From Candidatus Omnitrophota bacterium (GTDB lineage: Bacteria; Omnitrophota; Omnitrophia; Omnitrophales; Aquincolibacteriaceae): a DNA stretch of 64,000 bases. Shown piece after piece: positions 1,400-63,548 of the stretch (position 1 is the first letter of the stretch; each line of letters starts with the position of its first letter). A program made the position numbers and the translations under genes. The stretch is from assembly GCA_022709525.1 (NCBI GenBank), contig JAKLIQ010000003.1:129771-193770 (forward strand). The letters are read 5' to 3'. The notes beneath the pieces are model-generated. The model saw only the letters and a program-made list of their open reading frames with translations. It had not been told where the DNA came from and did no database searches.

Positions 1400-1492
1400 A
1401 CCCCGTTAGATCTTTGACGGGGCGGTGACCATTTCAACTAGCGCAGTTAAAATGGTTCATGACGAGTTATGAAATAGGAGATCTAACGGGGT
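1400..1492. repeat. Inverted-repeat mini-element copy A (ACCCCGTTAGATCT ... AGATCTAACGGGGT), no ORF
   Basis: 1401-1413 CCCCGTTAGATCT is the exact reverse complement of 1479-1491 AGATCTAACGGGG; same termini as copies at 8158, 34498, 55687. Confidence 0.6.
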
Positions 1493-3407
1493 GGAGATCA
1501 AACGGCTTAAAGTCAACACCCAGATCGGGATCGGGGAGCTCGAAGCGCTTTTGGCAGAGCTTCATTACCAGAAAAGAGAATATGTCGCTTTGCCGGGGGA
1601 GTTCGCCGTGCGGGGCGGCACAGTCGATATTTATCCCGTAACTTACCGCCTTCCAGTCCGGATCCAGCTCCACGGCGACACGTTGGCCCAGATCCGTGAT
1701 TTCTCGCCCGCTTCCGGCGAAAGCACCGCGGTCTTTGAAGAAGTCTTTCTGATCGAAGTCTCCGACCTTTTCCGCAAAAAACTCCGTCGCATGGAAGAAC
1801 GCCTCGAAACTTTCGAGCCCGTTGCCGGCACGAAAGACCTCGAACGCGGCGATCTCGTCGTCCATCTCAAGTACGGCATCGGCCGTTTTCTCGGCACCAA
1901 AGTCATCCAAATGCAAAAGGTGCGCACCCGCTGCATGGCGATCGAATATGCTGACCGCGAGATCCTCTATCTTTCCATGGAAGAACCCGTCGAGCGCTAC
2001 ATCGGCGGCTCCGGCGTTTCTCCGAAACTTACCAAACTCAACACCCAAGAATGGGAACGGATCAAACACCGGACGCGGACGGCGCTTCACAAAGTCGCCC
2101 AAGACCTGCTGCAGATCCAGGCCAAACGCAGTCTTCTGAAAGGCCTGGCTTTTCCCAAGGACACGCCGTGGCAGCGTGAATTCGAGGAGGAATTCCCGTT
2201 CGAAGAAACGCCGGGACAAAAACGCGCGATCGAGGAAGTTAAACGCGATATGGAATCCGACGGGCCCATGGACCGGCTGCTTTGCGGGGATGTGGGTTAC
2301 GGCAAAACCGAAGTCGCGATGCGGGCCGCCTTCAAAGCGGTCATGGGAGGCAAGCAGGCCGCGTTCCTGGTGCCGACCACGATCCTGGCCGAACAGCATT
2401 ATATTTTACTCAAAGACCGCACCAAAAACTTTCCGGCGTCGGTCGGCCTTCTTTCAAGATTTCAAACGCCGCGGGAGCAAAAAGCGATCGTCAAAGCGCT
2501 CCGGGAGGGTGCGATGGATATTGTGATCGGGACCCACCGCCTCCTTTCCAAAGACATCCAGTTCAAGGACCTCGGCCTTGTGATCATTGATGAGGAACAG
2601 CGTTTCGGCGTCCGCCATAAAGAAAAGCTCAAACAAATGCGCACGCAGGTGGACGTTCTGACGCTTACCGCCACGCCGATCCCGAGGACGCTCCATATGG
2701 CGCTTCTGGGGGTCCGGGATATGTCGGTGATCGATACGCCGCCGGAAAACCGGTTGCCGATCGAAACTTTTGTGATGGAATATCACGAGAATATCGTCAA
2801 ACAGGCCATCGAACGGGAACTTGTCCGCAAGGGGCAGGTCTATTTTGTCCACAACCGCGTCCAATCCATCGAGCGGGTCCATGAAAGACTCAAGAAACTT
2901 CTGCCCGCCGTCCGGTTCGGCGTGATGCACGGGCAGATGAAAGTCGAGATGCTCGAGGGCGTTATGAAACAGTTCCTTAAAGGGGAGATTGATTGCCTTA
3001 TTTCGACCAACATCGTGGAATCCGGCATTGATATCCCGAACGTGAATACTTTGATCGTGGACCGGGCCGATTGCTTTGGCTTGGCCGATCTTTACCAGCT
3101 GCGCGGACGGGTCGGGCGTTTCAAGGAAAAACGGCAGGCCTTCGCCTATTTTTTGATCCCGAAGAACTGGGTCATGACCCAGGACGCGCAGAAGCGGCTT
3201 CACGCCATCGAAAAATTCACGCAACTCGGCTCGGGATTCAAGATCGCGATGGAAGACCTTGAGATCCGCGGAACCGGGAACCTGCTCGGGCACGAGCAAA
3301 GCGGCTTTATCCAGGCCGTCGGGTTCGATCTCTACTGCAAAATGCTTAAAAAAGCGGTCGAAGAGCAGAAAAGCAGTAGCTCGGGACTCGGGACTCGATC
3401 TTTGTAA
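1491..3407 (+). CDS. mfd: Transcription-repair coupling factor Mfd, short form (638 aa; RID + translocase modules only)
   Basis: CarD/TRCF RNAP-interacting motif GDLVVHLKYGIGRFLG; SF2 helicase motifs LLCGDVGYGKTEVA, DEEQRFGV, TLTATPIPRTL; TRG-region IRGTGNLLGHEQSGF. GTG start lies inside right IR of copy A, AGGAG at 1476-1480. Confidence 0.8.
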   Translation: MEIKRLKVNTQIGIGELEALLAELHYQKREYVALPGEFAVRGGTVDIYPVTYRLPVRIQLHGDTLAQIRDFSPASGESTAVFEEVFLIEVSDLFRKKLRRMEERLETFEPVAGTKDLERGDLVVHLKYGIGRFLGTKVIQMQKVRTRCMAIEYADREILYLSMEEPVERYIGGSGVSPKLTKLNTQEWERIKHRTRTALHKVAQDLLQIQAKRSLLKGLAFPKDTPWQREFEEEFPFEETPGQKRAIEEVKRDMESDGPMDRLLCGDVGYGKTEVAMRAAFKAVMGGKQAAFLVPTTILAEQHYILLKDRTKNFPASVGLLSRFQTPREQKAIVKALREGAMDIVIGTHRLLSKDIQFKDLGLVIIDEEQRFGVRHKEKLKQMRTQVDVLTLTATPIPRTLHMALLGVRDMSVIDTPPENRLPIETFVMEYHENIVKQAIERELVRKGQVYFVHNRVQSIERVHERLKKLLPAVRFGVMHGQMKVEMLEGVMKQFLKGEIDCLISTNIVESGIDIPNVNTLIVDRADCFGLADLYQLRGRVGRFKEKRQAFAYFLIPKNWVMTQDAQKRLHAIEKFTQLGSGFKIAMEDLEIRGTGNLLGHEQSGFIQAVGFDLYCKMLKKAVEEQKSSSSGLGTRSL

Positions 3408-29405: not shown

Positions 29406-30455
29406 ATGGACAACATGAAGAATTACTTCCGCCTTTTAGCGGAGGACAAACAAAATGACGCCGCGAGCGCTTTTCTCTCCGTTTTTCTTTCCGTTGCGGC
29501 GTGGGGATACGGCCTCGGGGTAGGTGTATTCCGTTGGCTTTACGAACGGAAGATCCTTCCGCGCAAGAGGCTTCCGTATCCCGTTATAAGCGTCGGCAAT
29601 CTGACTTGGGGAGGCACAGGCAAGACTCCCTTTGTGGAATATCTGGCCCGTAAGATCGGCGCTCACCGCAAGATCCCTCTTGTGCTGACGCGCGGCTACA
29701 GCCACGACGAAGCCCTTGAGCTCCAGCACCATCTTCCGACGGCGGTCATCGGGGTCGGTAAGGACCGGGCCAAAGTGGCGGACCGCGTCCAAAAAGAAAG
29801 AAAACACGTCGATATCGCGATCCTTGACGACGGCCTCCAGCACCAGGCCCTGGAGCGGGATGTGGACATCGCCGTTATCAATTCACTTAATCCTTTCGGC
29901 AATGGCAAGCTGATCCCCCGGGGCATTTTGCGGGAACCGCCCGGAGTCTTGAAGCGCGCGGCCATCGTTGTCCTGACCCATGTCAACCTTGTAAGCCCCG
30001 AAGAGCTTAAAAGACTTAAGGAAAAGATCTCGGTCCTCGCGCCGCAGGCGCAGGTGATCGAGACGGTCATGGAAGTGCTTTTTCTTTACCGGGCCAAGAC
30101 CAAGGTCCGTATGTCGGTCGAAAAAATGAGCGGCCGGCGCGTCGCGACCTTCGCGGCTGTAGGGACCCCCCGTTCTTTTCAGCTCGTTCTCCAGAAATTA
30201 GGCGTTAAAACGGTTCGGAACTTCGAGTTCTTGGATCATCATATTTATACAAAACCGGAGCTTTTAAAGATCAAAGAGATCGCTCAATCCGCGGGCGCCG
30301 AAGAGATCATTACGACCGAAAAGGATTTCTACCGGTCGCGCGAATTGATCACAACCGCGCTCAATCCGTTCGTGCTTGCCGCGCGTCTGCGGGTCGTTTC
30401 AGGCGAAGAGATCCTGACCGACCGGCTTTTCCGCTTGCTCGGAGTAAAAAACTGA
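29406..30455 (+). CDS. lpxK: Tetraacyldisaccharide 4'-kinase
   Basis: ISVGNLTWGGTGKTPFVEYLA P-loop. Confidence 0.85.
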   Translation: MDNMKNYFRLLAEDKQNDAASAFLSVFLSVAAWGYGLGVGVFRWLYERKILPRKRLPYPVISVGNLTWGGTGKTPFVEYLARKIGAHRKIPLVLTRGYSHDEALELQHHLPTAVIGVGKDRAKVADRVQKERKHVDIAILDDGLQHQALERDVDIAVINSLNPFGNGKLIPRGILREPPGVLKRAAIVVLTHVNLVSPEELKRLKEKISVLAPQAQVIETVMEVLFLYRAKTKVRMSVEKMSGRRVATFAAVGTPRSFQLVLQKLGVKTVRNFEFLDHHIYTKPELLKIKEIAQSAGAEEIITTEKDFYRSRELITTALNPFVLAARLRVVSGEEILTDRLFRLLGVKN

Positions 30456-32404
30456 TGGAAGATTTTTTAGACCGTATCGCTTGTTTGTTTGCCAAAGCGC
30501 TCGTTTTCGCCTTAGAACGTTTACCGTTTGAAGCGAGACTGCGTTTCGGAAAAACGATCGGTCATCTTGTTTTCTTTTTTTCAAAGAAACGCCGGATCGC
30601 TTATACCAACTTAAAGGCGGCTCTTGGCGCCAAGCTTTCGGCAAGAGAACGCTGGAAAACAGTTTATGATCATTTGGGGCACATCGGCCAGATGATCGCA
30701 GAAGTCATGTCTTTTCGCCGGCTTACGCGCGAAGATATCGATCAAAATATCAAGATCCACCATCTGGAAAGATTCGAAAAACTTCTTCACTCCGGCCGCG
30801 GCGGCGTTTTGATCACGGCGCATTTCGGCAATTGGGAACTTCTTCAGGTGGTGGCGGGACTTCGCGGGACGCCGATCCATGTATTAGCGCGCGAACAGAA
30901 ATTCCCGCGTTTGAACGAATTCCTTAACAAGCTCCGCGAAACGCACGGATCGGTCGCGATCAGCCGCGGGGCGGGGATCCGTTCCCTTATCCGCGCGCTT
31001 CGCGAAAAACAATTGATCGGAGTTTTAGGGGACCAATCCGCCGGCAAAACCGGAGGCGTTATTCTGCCTTTTTTCGGCAGGAGGACGACGGTACCCACCG
31101 GAGCTTTTGAGCTTGCCCAACGCACCGATTCATTTATTCTCCCGTGTTTCATGGTAAGGACAAACGGCCGACAGCATGAAATTCATATCGGCGAACCGCT
31201 TAAAGACGACCCTTCTCTTGAAGCTTCCGCGCGGGTGGAATTCCAGGTAAAACAATATTTGCATGTCCTCGAAGATTTTATCAGCCGGTTCCCGGACCAG
31301 TGGCTTTGGGAGAATAAACGGTGGAAATACAGCTGGGACCGAAAAATCGTGATTCTTTCGGACGGGAAGGCCGGGCATTTTAAACAGTCGGAAGTGGTGG
31401 CTGGTATGCTAAGTGATTTTAAGGAATTTCACAGCCGTTCCGGATTGCAATTTGAAACCGAAAGGATCCTTGTCGAATACCGTTCCAAGCTCCACAGGAC
31501 CGCTTTGTTCTTGCTGGCGTTCCTGATGAAGCCCTGGATCCAGGGAAGAATCCGCTGGCTTGCTCCTTTTTTTACCGAAGAGACGCAGAGAGCCATCGAA
31601 GAAGTGAACGCGGATTTTCTGATCGCGGCCGGTTCGGGGCTTGCTCCGGTTCAAATGCTTTTGGCGCAAGAAACAGGTGCCAAGAAGATCGTGATCATGA
31701 ACCCGCCTTTTCCTTATTCCATGACCCATTACGATCTTGCGATCGTGCCCGCCCATGACGGCGGCAAAGTTCCCCGGAAAACATTTCGTTCGGTGATCAT
31801 GCCAAGCGGTTACCAGGCCTGCGACCGGACGGCGGATGTCCGGCTACTCGAGACAAAGTTGGGGGATGGGAGGCGCCCGAAGATCGCCGTTTTCTTGGGC
31901 GGCGCGACGCGGAGCTATGACCTGACCGTCTCGGATATGGAAAAGCTCTGTTCGATCCTTAAGCGCGTGGCACCCAGAGCCGGGGATTTTATGATTACGA
32001 CCTCCCGGCGCACCTCGGTCCATGTGGAGCGTTTTCTAAAGAGCACGCTTGCCGAACAGCCCGTCTGCCGGTTCCTTGTGATCGCCTCCGAAGAGAATCC
32101 ATCCTATGCGGCGAGCGGGATGATGGGGCTTGCCGATCTTCTGATCGTGACCGAAGACAGTCTCGCCATGATCTCTGAGGCCGTCGGAACAGGGAAGCGT
32201 GTGATCGTTCTCAGTTTGGGGGAAGGTGACCTGCCGGAGAAACATTACCGCTTTCATCAGATCTTGAGCCAGCGCGGACTCGTGACGCTCAGTTGCCTGG
32301 CGGACCTTGAAAAACATATCGGCGAGCTTTTAAACAAGCCGGCGTTTCCGGTACTTCGCCGGGAGAAAGAAACTTTAAGCGAACGCTTAGGGACCTTGAT
32401 ATGA
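30455..32404 (+). CDS. Fusion: LpxL/HtrB-family lipid A late acyltransferase (aa 1-~290) + ELM1/DUF1022-like domain (aa ~295-649)
   Basis: HFGNWELLQVV…PDQWLWENKRWK (LpxL) then KIVILSDGKAGHFKQSEVVAG (ELM1-like start). Confidence 0.65.
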   Translation: MEDFLDRIACLFAKALVFALERLPFEARLRFGKTIGHLVFFFSKKRRIAYTNLKAALGAKLSARERWKTVYDHLGHIGQMIAEVMSFRRLTREDIDQNIKIHHLERFEKLLHSGRGGVLITAHFGNWELLQVVAGLRGTPIHVLAREQKFPRLNEFLNKLRETHGSVAISRGAGIRSLIRALREKQLIGVLGDQSAGKTGGVILPFFGRRTTVPTGAFELAQRTDSFILPCFMVRTNGRQHEIHIGEPLKDDPSLEASARVEFQVKQYLHVLEDFISRFPDQWLWENKRWKYSWDRKIVILSDGKAGHFKQSEVVAGMLSDFKEFHSRSGLQFETERILVEYRSKLHRTALFLLAFLMKPWIQGRIRWLAPFFTEETQRAIEEVNADFLIAAGSGLAPVQMLLAQETGAKKIVIMNPPFPYSMTHYDLAIVPAHDGGKVPRKTFRSVIMPSGYQACDRTADVRLLETKLGDGRRPKIAVFLGGATRSYDLTVSDMEKLCSILKRVAPRAGDFMITTSRRTSVHVERFLKSTLAEQPVCRFLVIASEENPSYAASGMMGLADLLIVTEDSLAMISEAVGTGKRVIVLSLGEGDLPEKHYRFHQILSQRGLVTLSCLADLEKHIGELLNKPAFPVLRREKETLSERLGTLI

Positions 32405-34497
32405 AAGTGATGCAGCTTCTGCCGGCGCTTGAACTCGGCGGAACAGAGCGCGGTGTGGTCGATCTAGCACGCGCTATGAAAAAAGAAGGGCACGCGACCG
32501 TCGTAGTCTCTTCCGGCGGCGCGCTTGTCGCCGAACTTCAAAAAATGGGGATCCCGCATTATGGTCTTCCGGTCCATCAAAAGTCGCTCGCCGCGTTTTT
32601 TTTAGTCGAAGAACTCGTCAAGATCATCCAGCGGGAACGAGTCGACATCATCCATGCGCGAAGCCGGGTTCCGGCCTGGATCGGCTGGCTGGCGGCGCGC
32701 AAAACAGGCGTTCCGTTCATCACGACATGTCATGGGCATTATTCGGTCCATCTGATGAGTTTTGTCATGGGATGGGGAAAGCGTGTGATCGTCGCATCCC
32801 ACGCGATCGGAAGACGCATGATCGATGAATTCAATGTGCCTCCGGACAGGATCCGCCTGATCCCGCGCGGCGTTGATCTTTCCCAGTTTACTTTTTCTTT
32901 TGCGAAATTTGAGAAACACAAAGGGCCGATGCGAATCGTGCACATCGGAAGATTTTCTCCCGCGAAAGGACAAGTAGAATTTTTAAAGGCGGTCCATTTA
33001 CTTCGCAGCCGCCTTCCTCATTTTGAGGTGTGGATCGTCGGTTCGGAAGGGCGCGGCAAACATCGCTACACGGACCTTATGAAAAAAACGGTCCATCAAT
33101 TCGGCCTTGAATCCTGCGTGAAGATCCTTCCGCCGACCCGCGATGTGGCGGGGCTTCTGGCCCAGGCGGACCTTTTGGTCTTGTCGTCGCTTATCCCCGA
33201 GCCGTTCGGGCGCGTGATCATCGAGGCCGGCGCGGTTGGAACGCCTGTCGCGGCGACCTGGCTCGGCGGTGTACCGGACATTATCGACCATAACGAGAAT
33301 GGATTGCTTTTCCCGCCCAAGAATATTCCTGCAATGGCGGAAGCCATGTACGAACTTTTAACGGACCGGGAAAAAGCCAAGAATTTTGCGGTCAAACTCC
33401 GCAAAAAGGTGGAAGAAAAATTCAATCTCGAACAAATGGTCCGCAAAACGATCGAAGTCTATCAAGAAGTTAGAAAAAGACGGAAAATCCTCGTGATCAA
33501 ACTTGGCGCGATGGGCGATCTGATCCTGGTCGTGCCGAGCCTGCGGATGCTCCGGGAACGTTTTCCGGACGCGTCGATCACGCTTTTAGTCGACCGCAAG
33601 CTCGCTCCGATCGTTTCCGCGTGCCCTTATTTGAACGACATGATCCTTGTGGACCGGAAAAAACTTTCCAATCTTTTTTATCTTTTAAAGACCGCGCGCC
33701 GCGTCCGACGCGAAGGCTTTGATATCTCGGTCGACCTTCATAACAATAAATGGACGCATCTTCTGGCCTATCTTGGAGGTGTGATCCAGCGTTTCGGGTT
33801 CTCACGGGGGAAATGGGGCTTCCTGTTGAACCGTCCCGACAGGACCTTTGAGGTCGGAGATTCGCCCATCCGCCATCAATTCAGGGTGCTTTCCAAAGCC
33901 GGGGTCATCAAATTTGATGATGCGCTGGAGCTTTGGCCGAAGCCCGCAGACCTTGAAAAGGCCAAAGAAGCGATCACGACTTTAGAGCCCAAAGAGCATA
34001 CCAAGATCGTTGGATTCGTGATGGGATCAAGCCCGAATTGGCCGAGCAAACGTTGGCCCGCCGATCATTTCGTAAACCTTGCAAAACGGCTACTCGAAAA
34101 ATATGACGCAAGGATTGTTTTGATCGGTTCGCCGCAGGAAGCGGATCTTGCGAAGCCTTTTTATTCTTTCAAGTCCGGCGCTGTGCTGGACCTCACGGGG
34201 AAAACCGCGCTTGAAGAATTGCCGGCCTTTTTCAAACAGTTCCATCTGGTCGTGACGGGCGATACGGCGCCGCTTCATGTCGCTGCCGCCATGAACATTC
34301 CGACCGTTGCCCTTTTTGGGCCGACGGACGCCAAGCGCCATGTCCCGCCGGGGAAGCGGCTCGACGTCCTTTCCCATCATCTGCCTTGCCAGCCTTGCTA
34401 CAGCGGCACATGCAAGATCAAGGAAACCCAGGCCTGCCTGACGCATATTTCCGTTGAAGAAGTTTTTGAACACTGCCAGAGGATGCTTGGATCATGA
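32401..34497 (+). CDS. Fusion glycosyltransferase: GT4 (GT-B, aa 1-~360) + GT9 heptosyltransferase-like domain (aa ~365-698)
   Basis: EAGAVGTPVAATWLGGVPDIIDHNENGLLF (GT4 EX7E region) then ILVIKLGAMGDLILVVPSL (GT9 N-term). Confidence 0.7.
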   Translation: MKVMQLLPALELGGTERGVVDLARAMKKEGHATVVVSSGGALVAELQKMGIPHYGLPVHQKSLAAFFLVEELVKIIQRERVDIIHARSRVPAWIGWLAARKTGVPFITTCHGHYSVHLMSFVMGWGKRVIVASHAIGRRMIDEFNVPPDRIRLIPRGVDLSQFTFSFAKFEKHKGPMRIVHIGRFSPAKGQVEFLKAVHLLRSRLPHFEVWIVGSEGRGKHRYTDLMKKTVHQFGLESCVKILPPTRDVAGLLAQADLLVLSSLIPEPFGRVIIEAGAVGTPVAATWLGGVPDIIDHNENGLLFPPKNIPAMAEAMYELLTDREKAKNFAVKLRKKVEEKFNLEQMVRKTIEVYQEVRKRRKILVIKLGAMGDLILVVPSLRMLRERFPDASITLLVDRKLAPIVSACPYLNDMILVDRKKLSNLFYLLKTARRVRREGFDISVDLHNNKWTHLLAYLGGVIQRFGFSRGKWGFLLNRPDRTFEVGDSPIRHQFRVLSKAGVIKFDDALELWPKPADLEKAKEAITTLEPKEHTKIVGFVMGSSPNWPSKRWPADHFVNLAKRLLEKYDARIVLIGSPQEADLAKPFYSFKSGAVLDLTGKTALEELPAFFKQFHLVVTGDTAPLHVAAAMNIPTVALFGPTDAKRHVPPGKRLDVLSHHLPCQPCYSGTCKIKETQACLTHISVEEVFEHCQRMLGS

Positions 34498-60493: not shown

Positions 60494-62299
60494 ATGGTCC
60501 TTCTTCAAGTCAATGAACTCCGGAAAGCTTACGGGGCGGCCACGATCCTCGACGACGCGACCGCGGCCTTCGGGGACGATCAAAAAATAGGCGTGATCGG
60601 CCGTAACGGCGCCGGAAAATCCACGCTTTGCCGGATCATCACGGGTCACGAACAGGCGGATGGCGGTACGATCACGCGCAACACGGCCTTGCGTCTTTCC
60701 TATCTGGAACAGCACGATACATTCAAGCCGGGAGAAAAAGTCCTGGATTTCCTGATGCGCACCACCGGGAGCGAGCATTGGGAATGCGGCCAGATGGCCG
60801 CCCGGTTTCAGCTGAAAAATGAACTTCTTGAAGAGGCCGTCCAGAACCTGCCCGGAGGGTTTCAAACGCGCGTGAAGCTCGCGGCCATGTTGCTGGGGGA
60901 CCCGAACTTCCTGATCCTGGACGAACCGAGCAACTATCTCGACCTGAGCACGCTGATCCTTTTGGAGAATTTCCTTCTTAATTTCAAGGGAGGCTATCTC
61001 GTGGTCTCGCACGACCGTGAATTCCTGAAGCGGACCTGTGATCACACGCTGGAAGTCGAGAACGGACAGTTGACGCTTTATCCGGGGGATATTGAGGAGT
61101 ATTTCGAGTTTAAGGAAGAACAACTCGCTCAGAAAGAGGCCTATAACCGGGGGCTCGACAAAAAACGCGAACAGCTCCAGGCTTTTATCGACCGGTTCCG
61201 CGCTAAGGCATCCACGGCGACGCGCGCCCAGTCCAAAATGAAACAGCTCGCGAGGCTCAAGACGATCGAGATCGCGCACCCTATGAGCACGGTCAAGATC
61301 CACATCCCGCGCGTGGAACGCAAGGCCGGGGTGGCGCTCGATTGTGAAGACCTCACGATCGGCTATCCGGAAAAAGATGTCGCGCGCCACATCCGGGTCG
61401 AGATCGACCGCGGCAAGCATGTCGCTATCCTTGGCAATAACGGCGAAGGTAAAACGACTTTCTTAAGAACGCTCGCCGGGGGTCTGGCGCCTAAGGCCGG
61501 CGGGTTCCGGTGGGGATCGGGACTCAAGATCGCTTATTACGCCCAGCACGTTTTTTCGGTCCTGGACCCGGAAGACGACATTTATGCTTACCTTTCGCGC
61601 GAAAGCGCGCCCGGTGTTACAAGCCAGGACGTCCTGACCATGGCCGGATGTTTTCTTTTTAAGGGGGACGATGTTGAAAAAAAAGTGAAGGTCTTAAGCG
61701 GCGGCGAACGGGCGCGGTTGGTCCTGGCGGGGCTGCTTCTTTCCAAAAGTCATGTCCTGCTCTTAGACGAACCGACGAACCATCTGGATTTCGAGACCGT
61801 GGAAGCGCTGGGCCGCGCGCTTAAATCGTTCGCCGGCACGGTCCTTTTTATCAGCCACGACAGGACTTTCGTGAACCTGCTGGCCTCCAGCATCTTGGAG
61901 GTCAAAAAAGGCCGCATCCTTCATTATCCGGGGAGTTACGAAGATTACGTTTATCATCTCGAACAGGTGGCCCGCGGCGAAGAGGAAGATCCGCAGGAGG
62001 ACTTCTCTCCCGCGCCCGAAAAAAAATCGGCCCCAGCGGAAAGCATCCAGGCCCCGCCGCCCAAGAAGAACGAACAAAAAGTCGAACTTAAAAAACTCCA
62101 AAAAAGCATCGAAAAAGCCGAAGGGCGTGCGAAACATTTTACCGAGGAGCGGGATAAGATCCTCGCCGAGATGGCGAAGAACCCGCTGCATTATTCCAAG
62201 GACCGTAATGCGCGACTGAAGGAATGTCAGATCAAGATCGAAGAAGCCGAGGCGGAATGGAACCTCCTCGCGAAAAAAATGGAGAAACTTCAAAAATGA
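60494..62299 (+). CDS. ABC-F family ATPase (two ABC domains + C-terminal coiled coil)
   Basis: Two Walker A (GRNGAGKST, GNNGEGKTT), two signature motifs, no TMD. Confidence 0.8.
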   Translation: MVLLQVNELRKAYGAATILDDATAAFGDDQKIGVIGRNGAGKSTLCRIITGHEQADGGTITRNTALRLSYLEQHDTFKPGEKVLDFLMRTTGSEHWECGQMAARFQLKNELLEEAVQNLPGGFQTRVKLAAMLLGDPNFLILDEPSNYLDLSTLILLENFLLNFKGGYLVVSHDREFLKRTCDHTLEVENGQLTLYPGDIEEYFEFKEEQLAQKEAYNRGLDKKREQLQAFIDRFRAKASTATRAQSKMKQLARLKTIEIAHPMSTVKIHIPRVERKAGVALDCEDLTIGYPEKDVARHIRVEIDRGKHVAILGNNGEGKTTFLRTLAGGLAPKAGGFRWGSGLKIAYYAQHVFSVLDPEDDIYAYLSRESAPGVTSQDVLTMAGCFLFKGDDVEKKVKVLSGGERARLVLAGLLLSKSHVLLLDEPTNHLDFETVEALGRALKSFAGTVLFISHDRTFVNLLASSILEVKKGRILHYPGSYEDYVYHLEQVARGEEEDPQEDFSPAPEKKSAPAESIQAPPPKKNEQKVELKKLQKSIEKAEGRAKHFTEERDKILAEMAKNPLHYSKDRNARLKECQIKIEEAEAEWNLLAKKMEKLQK

Positions 62300-63309
62300 G
62301 AAGATCCGATCACGGATACCGGCCCGGCCAAGGCCAGCGCCCGCGACATCATCATGGCCCGCACCGCCCGCAGCAGCGTCCCGCAAACGGCTACGCTCCC
62401 TACTATGCTAACGGCCAGCGCCCGCAGGAAGACGAGGTCTTAAGGAAATTCAAGGAAAGTATCGCGATCGATCCCTCGCCGCGCATCCGGCTTGAAGATG
62501 GCTCAAAGGAAATGACGATGCGCGTGATGGACCTGATCTGTCCGATCGGCATGGGCCAGCGCGGCCTCATTGTCGCGCCTCCGGGCTCCGGAAAAACGAC
62601 CTTCTTAAAACATATTTGCCACGCCGTCGCCAAAAGCCGCCCCGAAATGAAAGTTTATTGCCTTCTTATCGACGAAAGGCCTGAGGAAGTCACCGATTTC
62701 AGGCGGAGCGTCACGGCCGAAGTCCGCTGGTCCTCTTCGGATGAATCCTATGAGCATCACATTGAAACGGCGAACACGCTCATGAAACAAGTCTATCGCG
62801 AGGCGCTGGCGGGGGAGAACGTCATGGTGCTCGTCGATTCTCTTACGCGGCTTGCGCGCGTGCATAACGCCGAACGGATCTCAAGCGGGCGGACGCTTTC
62901 AGGGGGCGTGGACGCGCGGGCGCTGGAGGTGCCGCGGCGGATTTTTGGGTCCGCGCGTAAGATCGAGAACGGCGGTTCGCTTACGATCCTCGCCACGATC
63001 TTAGTCGACACCGGAAGCCGCATGGACCAGATCATTTTCGAGGAATTCAAAGGCACGGGCAATATGGAGATCTATCTTTCCCGCGAGATCTCGAACCAGC
63101 GCATTTATCCCGCGGTCGATATCTCCAAAAGCGGCACCCGCAAGGAAGAACGCCTCTTCGAACCCGACGAACTTGAACCGGCGCGCCGGATGCGCCGCGC
63201 GCTCGCGGGCTTAAAACCGATCGAAGCGATCACGGCGCTTATCACCCAGCTCCAGAAATATCCGGAGAACAAGGCGCTTCTTACCGCTGTGAGCAGGCTG
63301 CAGGAATGA
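62296..63309 (+). CDS. rho: Transcription termination factor Rho, short form (337 aa) lacking recognisable N-terminal OB-fold RNA-binding domain
   Basis: RVMDLICPIGMGQRGLIVAPPGSGKTT…LIDERPEEVTD…VDSLTRLARVHN…GTGNMEIYLSREI…YPAVDISKSGTRKEE match Rho ATPase domain almost colinearly; N-terminal 45 aa are R/H/Q/P-rich low complexity. Confidence 0.75.
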   Translation: MRRSDHGYRPGQGQRPRHHHGPHRPQQRPANGYAPYYANGQRPQEDEVLRKFKESIAIDPSPRIRLEDGSKEMTMRVMDLICPIGMGQRGLIVAPPGSGKTTFLKHICHAVAKSRPEMKVYCLLIDERPEEVTDFRRSVTAEVRWSSSDESYEHHIETANTLMKQVYREALAGENVMVLVDSLTRLARVHNAERISSGRTLSGGVDARALEVPRRIFGSARKIENGGSLTILATILVDTGSRMDQIIFEEFKGTGNMEIYLSREISNQRIYPAVDISKSGTRKEERLFEPDELEPARRMRRALAGLKPIEAITALITQLQKYPENKALLTAVSRLQE

Positions 63310-63548
63310 ACGGCCAAAAGAACATCAACGATCTCGGCACGCAGCCGCTGGATGCCTTGATGACAAAGCTCGGGATCACGAACCACGCGCTTGTCGCGGC
63401 CTCGACCGAGCAGCTTTCGCATAAAGTCGTCCAAAAAGGGCGAAAGGGAAGGCGGCTGACGCCCAAGGCCAAGACCAAGATCCTGGACGCGCTCCACGCG
63501 CTGCTTCCGGAGCAGAAATTCGCGCACCGGGACCTTTTTAATTATTAG
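63306..63548 (+). CDS. Small hypothetical protein (80 aa)
   Basis: ATG overlaps rho stop (ATGA); no recognisable motif. Confidence 0.35.
   Translation: MNGQKNINDLGTQPLDALMTKLGITNHALVAASTEQLSHKVVQKGRKGRRLTPKAKTKILDALHALLPEQKFAHRDLFNY

Follow-up and report, generated by a model that had tools for sequence, protein, structure and literature searches.

Can a Rho motor operate without the site through which, in current models, Rho engages its transcripts? In those models Rho-dependent termination begins at the OB-fold primary site, which picks out unstructured, C-rich RNA and prompts the ring to close. We analyzed a 64,000-nucleotide stretch of DNA from a Candidatus Omnitrophota bacterium (GenBank assembly GCA_022709525.1, contig JAKLIQ010000003.1, positions 129,771 to 193,770; hereafter the window), in which a gene at 62296..63309 on the + strand encodes a protein of only 337 amino acids plus a stop codon. 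The gene was assigned to a short Rho (sRho) from its open reading frame (ORF) and sequence, the NCBIfam model NF006886, and matches in the PDB. A first-pass annotation had proposed that in this protein the OB fold is replaced by a disordered segment. Our reading, to which we give a probability of roughly 0.6, is that sRho is a Rho-family RNA translocase that has an intact motor, lacks the N-terminal domain, carries a basic tail instead, belongs to an inherited OB-less clade, and loads independently of rut (Rho utilization) sites.

The Rho-family identity of sRho is certain. Rho profile models gave it 336 to 379 bits, and NF006886 (378.6 bits against a cutoff of 315) aligned sRho residues 39-331 with model positions 120-412 of 413. 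The best PDB sequence matches were Rho proteins from Thermus, M. tuberculosis, E. coli, and Thermotoga (E = 7e-86 to 1e-72). Pairwise alignment gave 44.6% identity to residues 120-418 of E. coli Rho and, together with the PDB search, placed sRho residue 51 opposite E. coli residue 132. An AlphaFold2 model (monomer, 27-sequence alignment, predicted template modeling score 0.80) superposed on Rho C-terminal domains in Foldseek with template modeling scores of 0.76-0.80 over about 285 columns; these matches covered the C-terminal domains only, and the top 50 were all Rho. Since sRho has PF00006 as its sole Pfam domain and matches FliI, SctN, and F1 beta models significantly if weakly, one could ask whether it is not a Rho at all but a FliI/SctN-type export ATPase or an F1-like subunit sharing that domain. 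The FliI, SctN, and F1 models gave sRho no more than 86.5 bits against cutoffs of 380-750, far below the Rho models, and the Rho-specific Q-loop, R-loop, and SGTRKEE motif are all present. The score gap and the motif content refute this identity, whose chance is next to nil.

Residues 45-337 are a canonical Rho connector and ATPase domain, with the C-terminal helical subdomain kept. The colinearity with E. coli Rho through to the C-terminus noted in the first-pass annotation was borne out by pairwise alignment, NF006886, and the AlphaFold2 model alike. The connector (residues 45-74, 62428..62517) corresponds to approximately residues 126-158 of E. coli Rho and includes a helix at 47-54, predicted at high confidence, and the conserved motif DPSPRIRLE; it was delimited by family conservation, alignment, and the model. 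It leads into the RecA-type ATPase core (PF00006, residues 75-279, 62518..63132; Pfam E = 4e-21). Pairwise alignment located the Walker A motif, or P-loop, PPGSGKT at residues 95-101 (62578..62598), against 179-185 in E. coli, with K100 and T101 equivalent to K184 and T185 and with G97 in place of E. coli K181. The catalytic glutamate is E127 (E. coli E211), the arginine valve R128 (R212), and the Walker B aspartate D181 (D265). The arginine finger, R282 (63139..63141), lies within SGTRKEE and equals E. coli R366. Among 27 aligned homologues, K100, T101, E127, R128, D181, and R282 did not vary.

Both elements of the secondary RNA-binding site are also retained. The Q-loop, RISSGRTLSGGVD, occupies residues 194-206 (62875..62913) and aligns with E. 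coli residues 278-290, VPASGKVLTGGVD. The R-loop, DTGSR, occupies residues 238-242 (63007..63021) and aligns with E. coli 322-326, DTGSK, so that R242 takes the place of K326. In the same 27-homologue alignment, the Q-loop was almost invariant across the family and the R-loop was conserved too. The segment VDSLTRLARVHN, which had earlier been labeled Q-loop/R-loop-like, is instead the Walker B / R269 region, in which D181 lies opposite E. coli D265.

Ahead of this motor, the whole Rho N-terminal domain, comprising the helix bundle and the OB-fold primary binding site, is absent. Neither PF07497 nor PF07498 matched sRho in Pfam at E <= 1, neither Rho_N nor Rho_RNA_bind was found in any of the 27 family members (0/27), and the AlphaFold2 model contained no beta-rich fold ahead of residue 75. 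Because tblastn with the E. coli N-terminal domain proved insensitive, recovering only 2 of approximately 20 OB-containing loci, we turned to an OB hidden Markov model (HMM) that was seeded with the OB region of E. coli Rho and iterated over full-length Rho sequences. This model recognized the fold in every positive control and in 135 of the 150 closest representatives at the 50%-identity level. Applied to six-frame translations of the 64-kb window and of 19 related loci (L001-L019) with 10-kb flanks, it gave no match even at E <= 10. The inference that residues 1-95 leave no room for an OB fold thus agrees with Pfam, the OB HMM, and AlphaFold2. A separately encoded Rho-N, OB, or cold-shock-domain partner, for which the first-pass annotation had suggested looking, was found neither in the window nor in the 19 related loci.

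Could the short protein be an artefact, that is, a truncated, mis-started, or frameshifted canonical rho gene or an assembly error? Annotation errors do occur in this family: proteins P0008, P0041, P0057, P0083, and P0089 are called from internal methionines or cut by contig ends, and an apparent in-frame fusion of rho with the downstream 80-codon ORF in locus L002 (10995-11095) results from a masked run of N and is not real. At the window locus, the sRho ATG shares the sequence ATGA with the TGA of the preceding gene, which encodes a complete ABC-F ATPase of 601 amino acids (60494..62299, +; two ABC_tran domains and ABC_tran_Xtn). An upstream in-frame Rho exon is therefore impossible, and an upstream exon or frameshift, which had been named as a possible source of the missing N-terminus, was ruled out. 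A longer frame starting at 62224 was rejected on two grounds: M[RK]x[FY] opens 63 of the 120 homologues, and in the close homologues L001, L002, and L005-L007 an in-frame stop lies three codons ahead of the equivalent methionine. Between 62296 and the conserved connector there is no in-frame ATG, GTG, or TTG, so the low-complexity tail must be translated. With the same architecture in more than 100 independent assemblies, and with no OB-coding sequence in any frame in the window or within 10 kb in the 19 related loci, an artefact is effectively refuted and very improbable.

The short form is in fact widespread. The best 120 database matches of sRho (69-99% identity) are all short, at 252-380 amino acids, which answers the question of Rho length in relatives, and all carry PF00006 only; those with organism names are mostly Candidatus Omnitrophota or Omnitrophica. 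Among GTDB species genomes, L001-L019 matched at 59-83% best-segment identity, and all lack the OB fold. The assemblies with the short architecture come from NCBI, JGI, ENA, and Logan, on contigs of up to 1.78 Mb. In trees of the C-terminal domains, the Omnitrophota proteins, a set of gammaproteobacterial sRho proteins, and the single protein P0130 were joined in 91/100 neighbor-joining bootstraps, and the gammaproteobacterial group in 100/100. Mean identity of the C-terminal domains is 74% within Omnitrophota, 66% between Omnitrophota and the gammaproteobacterial forms, and about 50% from either group to OB-containing Rho. All members of the OB-less short Rho clade as delimited here lack the OB fold. 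These comparisons indicate that the OB-less architecture is inherited and clade-wide rather than a truncation.

One member of this clade carries an unexpected label. P0130 (MEZ0371657.1) is a 301-amino-acid OB-less Rho named Candidatus Sericytochromatia that falls inside the Omnitrophota and gammaproteobacterial clade. In photosynthetic Cyanobacteria, Rho is reported to be missing altogether, so P0130 is an interesting exception unless its 4.2-kb contig was binned wrongly.

In place of the N-terminal domain, sRho has a basic, low-complexity, disordered tail (residues 1-44, 62296..62427), recognized from the AlphaFold2 model and from composition. In the model, the predicted local distance difference test score is below 50 throughout residues 1-44 and there is no secondary structure; order begins with the connector helix (47-54). 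Family conservation likewise begins abruptly near residue 45, with DE..RKF..S.AIDPSPRIRLE. The tail of sRho has a net charge of +7 and five histidines. Across 120 homologues, the tails consist of R (20%), P (14%), H (11%), S (10%), G (8%), and N (7%) with almost no acidic residues, and their median net charge is also +7 at a median length of 36.5 amino acids. The earlier description of an R/H/Q/P/Y-rich disordered segment thus stands for the disorder and for the richness in R, H, and P; the tyrosine richness is peculiar to sRho of the window and is not shared by its homologues. The composition of the tail is conserved and its length is not, which suggests that basic character has been selected.

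How might such a protein load and work? The C-terminal domains of sRho probably assemble into the usual six-subunit ring, in which RNA would be held in the central channel by the Q- and R-loops while ATP hydrolysis drives 5'->3' tracking. Since ring interfaces, ATPase, and channel site are all retained, a motor made of C-terminal domains only is plausible for translocation and RNA release. RNA capture would probably be sequence-agnostic, because the pyrimidine-specific clefts that read rut sites and serve ring closure are missing. Six basic tails, emerging where the N-terminal crown would sit, may aid non-specific electrostatic capture of RNA, and their R-rich composition fits nucleic-acid binding. 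The ring would reach RNA polymerase with its C-terminal face, the one that contacts the RNA exit in the engaged complex of Thermus, where Rho binds the elongation complex through C-terminal domains placed around that exit (PMC9908020). Recruitment and ring closure may depend on partners that dock on the C-terminal domain, for instance the NusG KOW domain or RNA polymerase. NusG KOW is reported to bind this domain of Rho and to favor closure of the ring even when the RNA is C-less (PMC7819879, citing Lawson 2018). We infer hexamer formation, RNA-dependent ATPase, termination activity, and the role of the tail from sequence and predicted structure only.

Several observations weigh against this reading. 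The score of sRho against the TIGR00767 equivalog (360.3 bits) lies below its cutoff of 509.45. The phylogeny consists of simple distance (neighbor-joining) trees of C-terminal domains, in which Omnitrophota without the gammaproteobacterial forms gained support of only 34/100. In E. coli Rho, removal of the first 27 residues, which lie within the N-terminal domain, reportedly abolishes RNA binding (PMC11347177, citing the original work), so termination by an OB-less Rho is not a given. In Gammaproteobacteria, where the protein is accessory, its role need not be general termination. Tail length ranges from approximately 4 to approximately 135 amino acids, the longest, in L015, being made of HPQRPG-type repeats, which weakens the case for an essential role in RNA capture. 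Several apparently full-length members are nearly tailless (among them P0087, which begins MRNFRDEAE..., P0104, P0082, P0101, P0111, and P0114), even after removal of obvious internal-methionine calls and contig-end fragments. The tail thus cannot be something that every member needs in the role of the primary binding site. The proposal that it substitutes for RNA capture is supported in so far as the tail is consistently basic across the 120 homologues, and is opposed by the full-length members in which it is nearly absent. Because such members exist, we regard the tail of sRho as a possible enhancer or tether rather than an essential part, with factors acting on the C-terminal domain as the likely core loading route.

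The tail may also have nothing to do with RNA capture: it could be a flexible spacer bearing an M-R-N-F docking motif, or a driver of condensates, with loading left to other factors. The extreme N-terminal M-R-N-F-like motif is the most constant element of the tail and, as M[RK]x[FY], its sole recurrent feature; it is kept even in near-tailless members (MRNFRDEAE, MRNFERH), and a related basic-hydrophobic start, MT[RK]KIL, occurs in gammaproteobacterial sRho. Phase separation has been predicted for the disordered regions of other Rho proteins and demonstrated in Bacteroides thetaiotaomicron (PMC11347177). A median of 36 amino acids is, however, short for a phase-separation domain, and a docking motif sits poorly with the finding that no partner gene is consistently beside sRho. 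The strong positive charge and scarcity of acidic residues in independent OB-less clades are explained more simply by nucleic-acid binding. We therefore consider a spacer, docking, or condensate role unlikely, and retain a basic tail that may assist RNA capture.

A further question is whether sRho is the only Rho of its host. Locus L018 (9902-10948) belongs to the isolate Glaciecola punicea ACAM 611 (NZ_BAET01000030.1), and a search with its protein listed 120 matches (P0438-P0557) of 309-348 amino acids with PF00006 only. These came from Glaciecola, Paraglaciecola, Colwellia sp. Bg11-28, Shewanella benthica, Spartinivicinus ruber, Halioglobus, and Oceanicoccus, the carriers being marine isolates and metagenome-assembled genomes (MAGs). 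Their tails are Lys-rich, about 27 amino acids long, and start with MT[RK]KILSL; the genes are monocistronic among unrelated genes, and the annotation pipeline PGAP labels them "transcription termination factor Rho". The Glaciecola gene matches its flanks and its host in GC content and lies among ordinary chromosomal genes, and is thus a long-resident accessory gene. Every one of the 1045 Pseudomonadota among 2730 surveyed genomes had a functional Rho (PMC11347177). The gammaproteobacterial sRho proteins, including those of the closest cultured carriers (Glaciecola, Colwellia, and Shewanella benthica), must therefore be second copies.

This makes a canonical Rho elsewhere in the Omnitrophota genome a serious possibility. 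On that account sRho would be an accessory paralogue, with an OB-containing Rho encoded outside the 64-kb window, and would act as a specialized motor for particular transcripts, for R-loops, or in the modulation of Rho. The presence of the clade in the bacteria just named and the setting of the Glaciecola copy favor it, as does the frequency of rho duplicates in the PVC (Planctomycetes, Verrucomicrobia, and Chlamydiae) group (PMC11347177). Set against it are the high conservation of the gene across the phylum (the 74% mean identity given above), its place in a housekeeping operon, and the small size of one near-complete assembly (1.78 Mb contig), two rho genes being less likely in a small genome. 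It is weakly opposed by the search results: no OB-containing Rho labeled Omnitrophota was present among the top matches listed or the loci, where all Omnitrophota-named ones were short, in a genome-contig scan that used sRho as the query and was biased toward loci with shared motifs, MDQIIFEE for example. Of 30 representatives looked up by cluster, few came with an organism name, and no OB-containing Rho from Omnitrophota was among those. We place the accessory paralogue at somewhat less than an even chance. That sRho is the only Rho of Omnitrophota, and that OB-less forms are likewise the sole Rho in the Rokubacteria-labeled, Eisenbacteria-type, and Hydrogenedentes-named lineages described below, is a tentative proposal that we hold with somewhat less than even confidence.

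The housekeeping operon around sRho encodes S-adenosylmethionine (SAM) synthetase, S-adenosylhomocysteine (AdoHcy) hydrolase, an iron-containing alcohol dehydrogenase (Fe-ADH), ABC-F, and sRho. The order AdoHcy hydrolase, Fe-ADH, ABC-F, sRho, small ORF, DUF4126 recurs in GCA_040767405.1, the assembly with the 1.78-Mb contig (JAXGOQ010000001.1), and the order ABC-F then sRho is kept in L001-L008 and L081. No neighbor is conserved beside sRho in all related loci. Downstream, the TGA of sRho overlaps the ATG of an 80-amino-acid ORF (63306..63548, +), again as ATGA. This ORF has 407 homologues of about 76-105 amino acids, every organism-named one of them from Omnitrophota or Omnitrophica, and it had no Pfam match. 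Its AlphaFold2 model is a helical bundle with a predicted local distance difference test score of 85.6, and it weakly resembles XRE/lambda-repressor-like helix-turn-helix proteins such as C.AhdI (PDB, E about 0.4). Being helix-turn-helix-like and adjoining sRho in the closest relatives only (L001-L008 and L081), it was rejected as an OB or cold-shock-domain partner. A scan for intrinsic terminators between 44 and 64 kb of the window was uninformative, with 42 against 30.6 +/- 6.4 expected, mostly within genes.

Other genes in the window were also reviewed. A short Mfd-like protein of 638 amino acids with a GTG start is encoded at 1491-3407 (+). E. coli Mfd has about 1150 amino acids. Pfam places UvrB-interaction (6-87), CarD_TRCF_RID (117-164), DEAD, and Helicase_C domains in the short protein, which keeps the modules that contact RNA polymerase and UvrA and appears to lack the flanking subdomains of the N-terminus and the regulatory domain at the C-terminus. 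The suggestion that both transcription-coupled motors of this genome have lost their loading modules is not supported for Mfd, which retains the UvrB-interaction domain and the RNA-polymerase-interacting CarD_TRCF_RID domain. Two fused envelope-biosynthesis genes lie at 30455-32404 (+; 649 amino acids, a Lip_A_acyltrans lipid A acyltransferase with an ELM1-like domain) and 32401-34497 (+; 698 amino acids, a GT4 glycosyltransferase with a GT9 heptosyltransferase). Across the window (1-64000), gene-like long ORFs are essentially all on the + strand, with very short or overlapping junctions, and no tRNA or Rfam family was detected.

A Rho motor that is conserved throughout a clade, with its central channel intact and the primary site gone, amounts to a natural experiment on the motor alone and on alternative loading. 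If sRho is the sole Rho of Omnitrophota, rut-independent factor-dependent termination would be established; if OB-less forms are likewise the sole Rho of the other lineages, whole phyla would run housekeeping Rho-dependent termination without the primary site, with loading by tails and/or by NusG and RNA polymerase. Surveys that require an RNA-binding domain would then wrongly score such uncultivated phyla as lacking a functional Rho. If it is accessory, as in Glaciecola, Colwellia, and Shewanella, it would represent an unstudied second Rho-like motor that is genetically testable in cultivable hosts.

How, then, does sRho compare with the Rho proteins already described? In the literature on Rho in Omnitrophota or Velamenicoccus, or on OB-less Rho, we found nothing relevant beyond one survey of Rho diversification, which covered cultured organisms with complete genomes and included no Omnitrophota (PMC11347177). 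That survey defines functional Rho as an RNA-binding domain plus the ATPase and sets aside single-domain sequences as "Rho-like" and non-functional; under its definitions sRho, with one Rho domain only, is "Rho-like". That the primary site can be missing altogether, and consistently so across a whole clade, appears to be undescribed. With canonical Rho (E. coli, Type 1), sRho shares the colinear connector, RecA-type ATPase, and C-terminal subdomain at about 45% identity; residues 1-130 of the canonical protein, the helix bundle and the OB fold that forms the rut-reading primary site, have no counterpart in sRho. The E. coli gene also has a leader region for its autoregulatory attenuator. The sRho gene has none, since the gene overlap leaves no room for a leader, and an E. 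coli-style attenuator is thus excluded.

Type 4 or "Group B" Rho and the proteins of NF041509 ("Rho, short form", paralog_Rho2) are shortened as well, to about 360-370 amino acids, and are often second copies in PVC-group and actinobacterial genomes. They lack the helix bundle only and keep the OB fold, whereas sRho lacks both. Type 4-like examples of roughly 370 amino acids were found in Tepidisphaerales and Phycisphaerales (L020-L024, L044, L055) and in Calditrichota (P0155), and the OB HMM detected the OB fold in them at E about 1e-33. These proteins correspond to Type 4 / Group B and probably to NF041509. sRho itself scored 336.5 bits against NF041509 (cutoff 628) and aligned only to positions 66-359 of 360.

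The disordered tail invites comparison with Type 2 Rho (M. tuberculosis, Micrococcus luteus, Bacteroides), whose N-terminal segments are similarly biased, R/Q/N/G-rich, and disordered, and raise RNA affinity or drive condensation (PMC11347177). The likeness to actinobacterial and Bacteroidetes N-terminal insertion domains drawn in the first-pass annotation holds only in part, because there the disorder is added to an intact OB fold (PMC11347177), whereas the tail of sRho has no OB fold beside it and is far shorter, and some members of the clade do without it.

Closer in architecture are further OB-less Rho proteins. Loci labeled Rokubacteria/Methylomirabilota encode forms of about 330-350 amino acids with the N-terminus LSRRSHRRRHSGNRPPQGQGQG..., Eisenbacteria-type forms (one example being the complete chromosome OY970342.1) begin MRPRRRRPRG... 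followed by 100-250 amino acids rich in G, P, Q, and R, and one protein named Hydrogenedentes has an Arg-rich N-terminus. Such forms, with Arg-rich N-termini of 30 to >200 amino acids, were recorded at L025, L026, L060, L063-L066, L068, L069, L071-L074, and L077, at L028-L058, and as proteins P0124, P0129, P0133, P0136, P0148, and P0235. Labels of MAGs from soil bins looked inconsistent, near-identical sequences being called Gemmatimonadales and Methylomirabilota. Like sRho, the Rokubacteria-labeled, Eisenbacteria-type, and Hydrogenedentes-named proteins have the C-terminal domain behind an Arg-rich low-complexity segment. In the trees they make up clades of their own, and at about 52% identity they stand no nearer to sRho than OB-containing Rho does, so the OB-less architecture probably arose more than once. 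The gammaproteobacterial sRho proteins have the same OB-less, PF00006-only architecture, fall in a common clade with sRho of the window, and differ from it in their Lys-rich tails.

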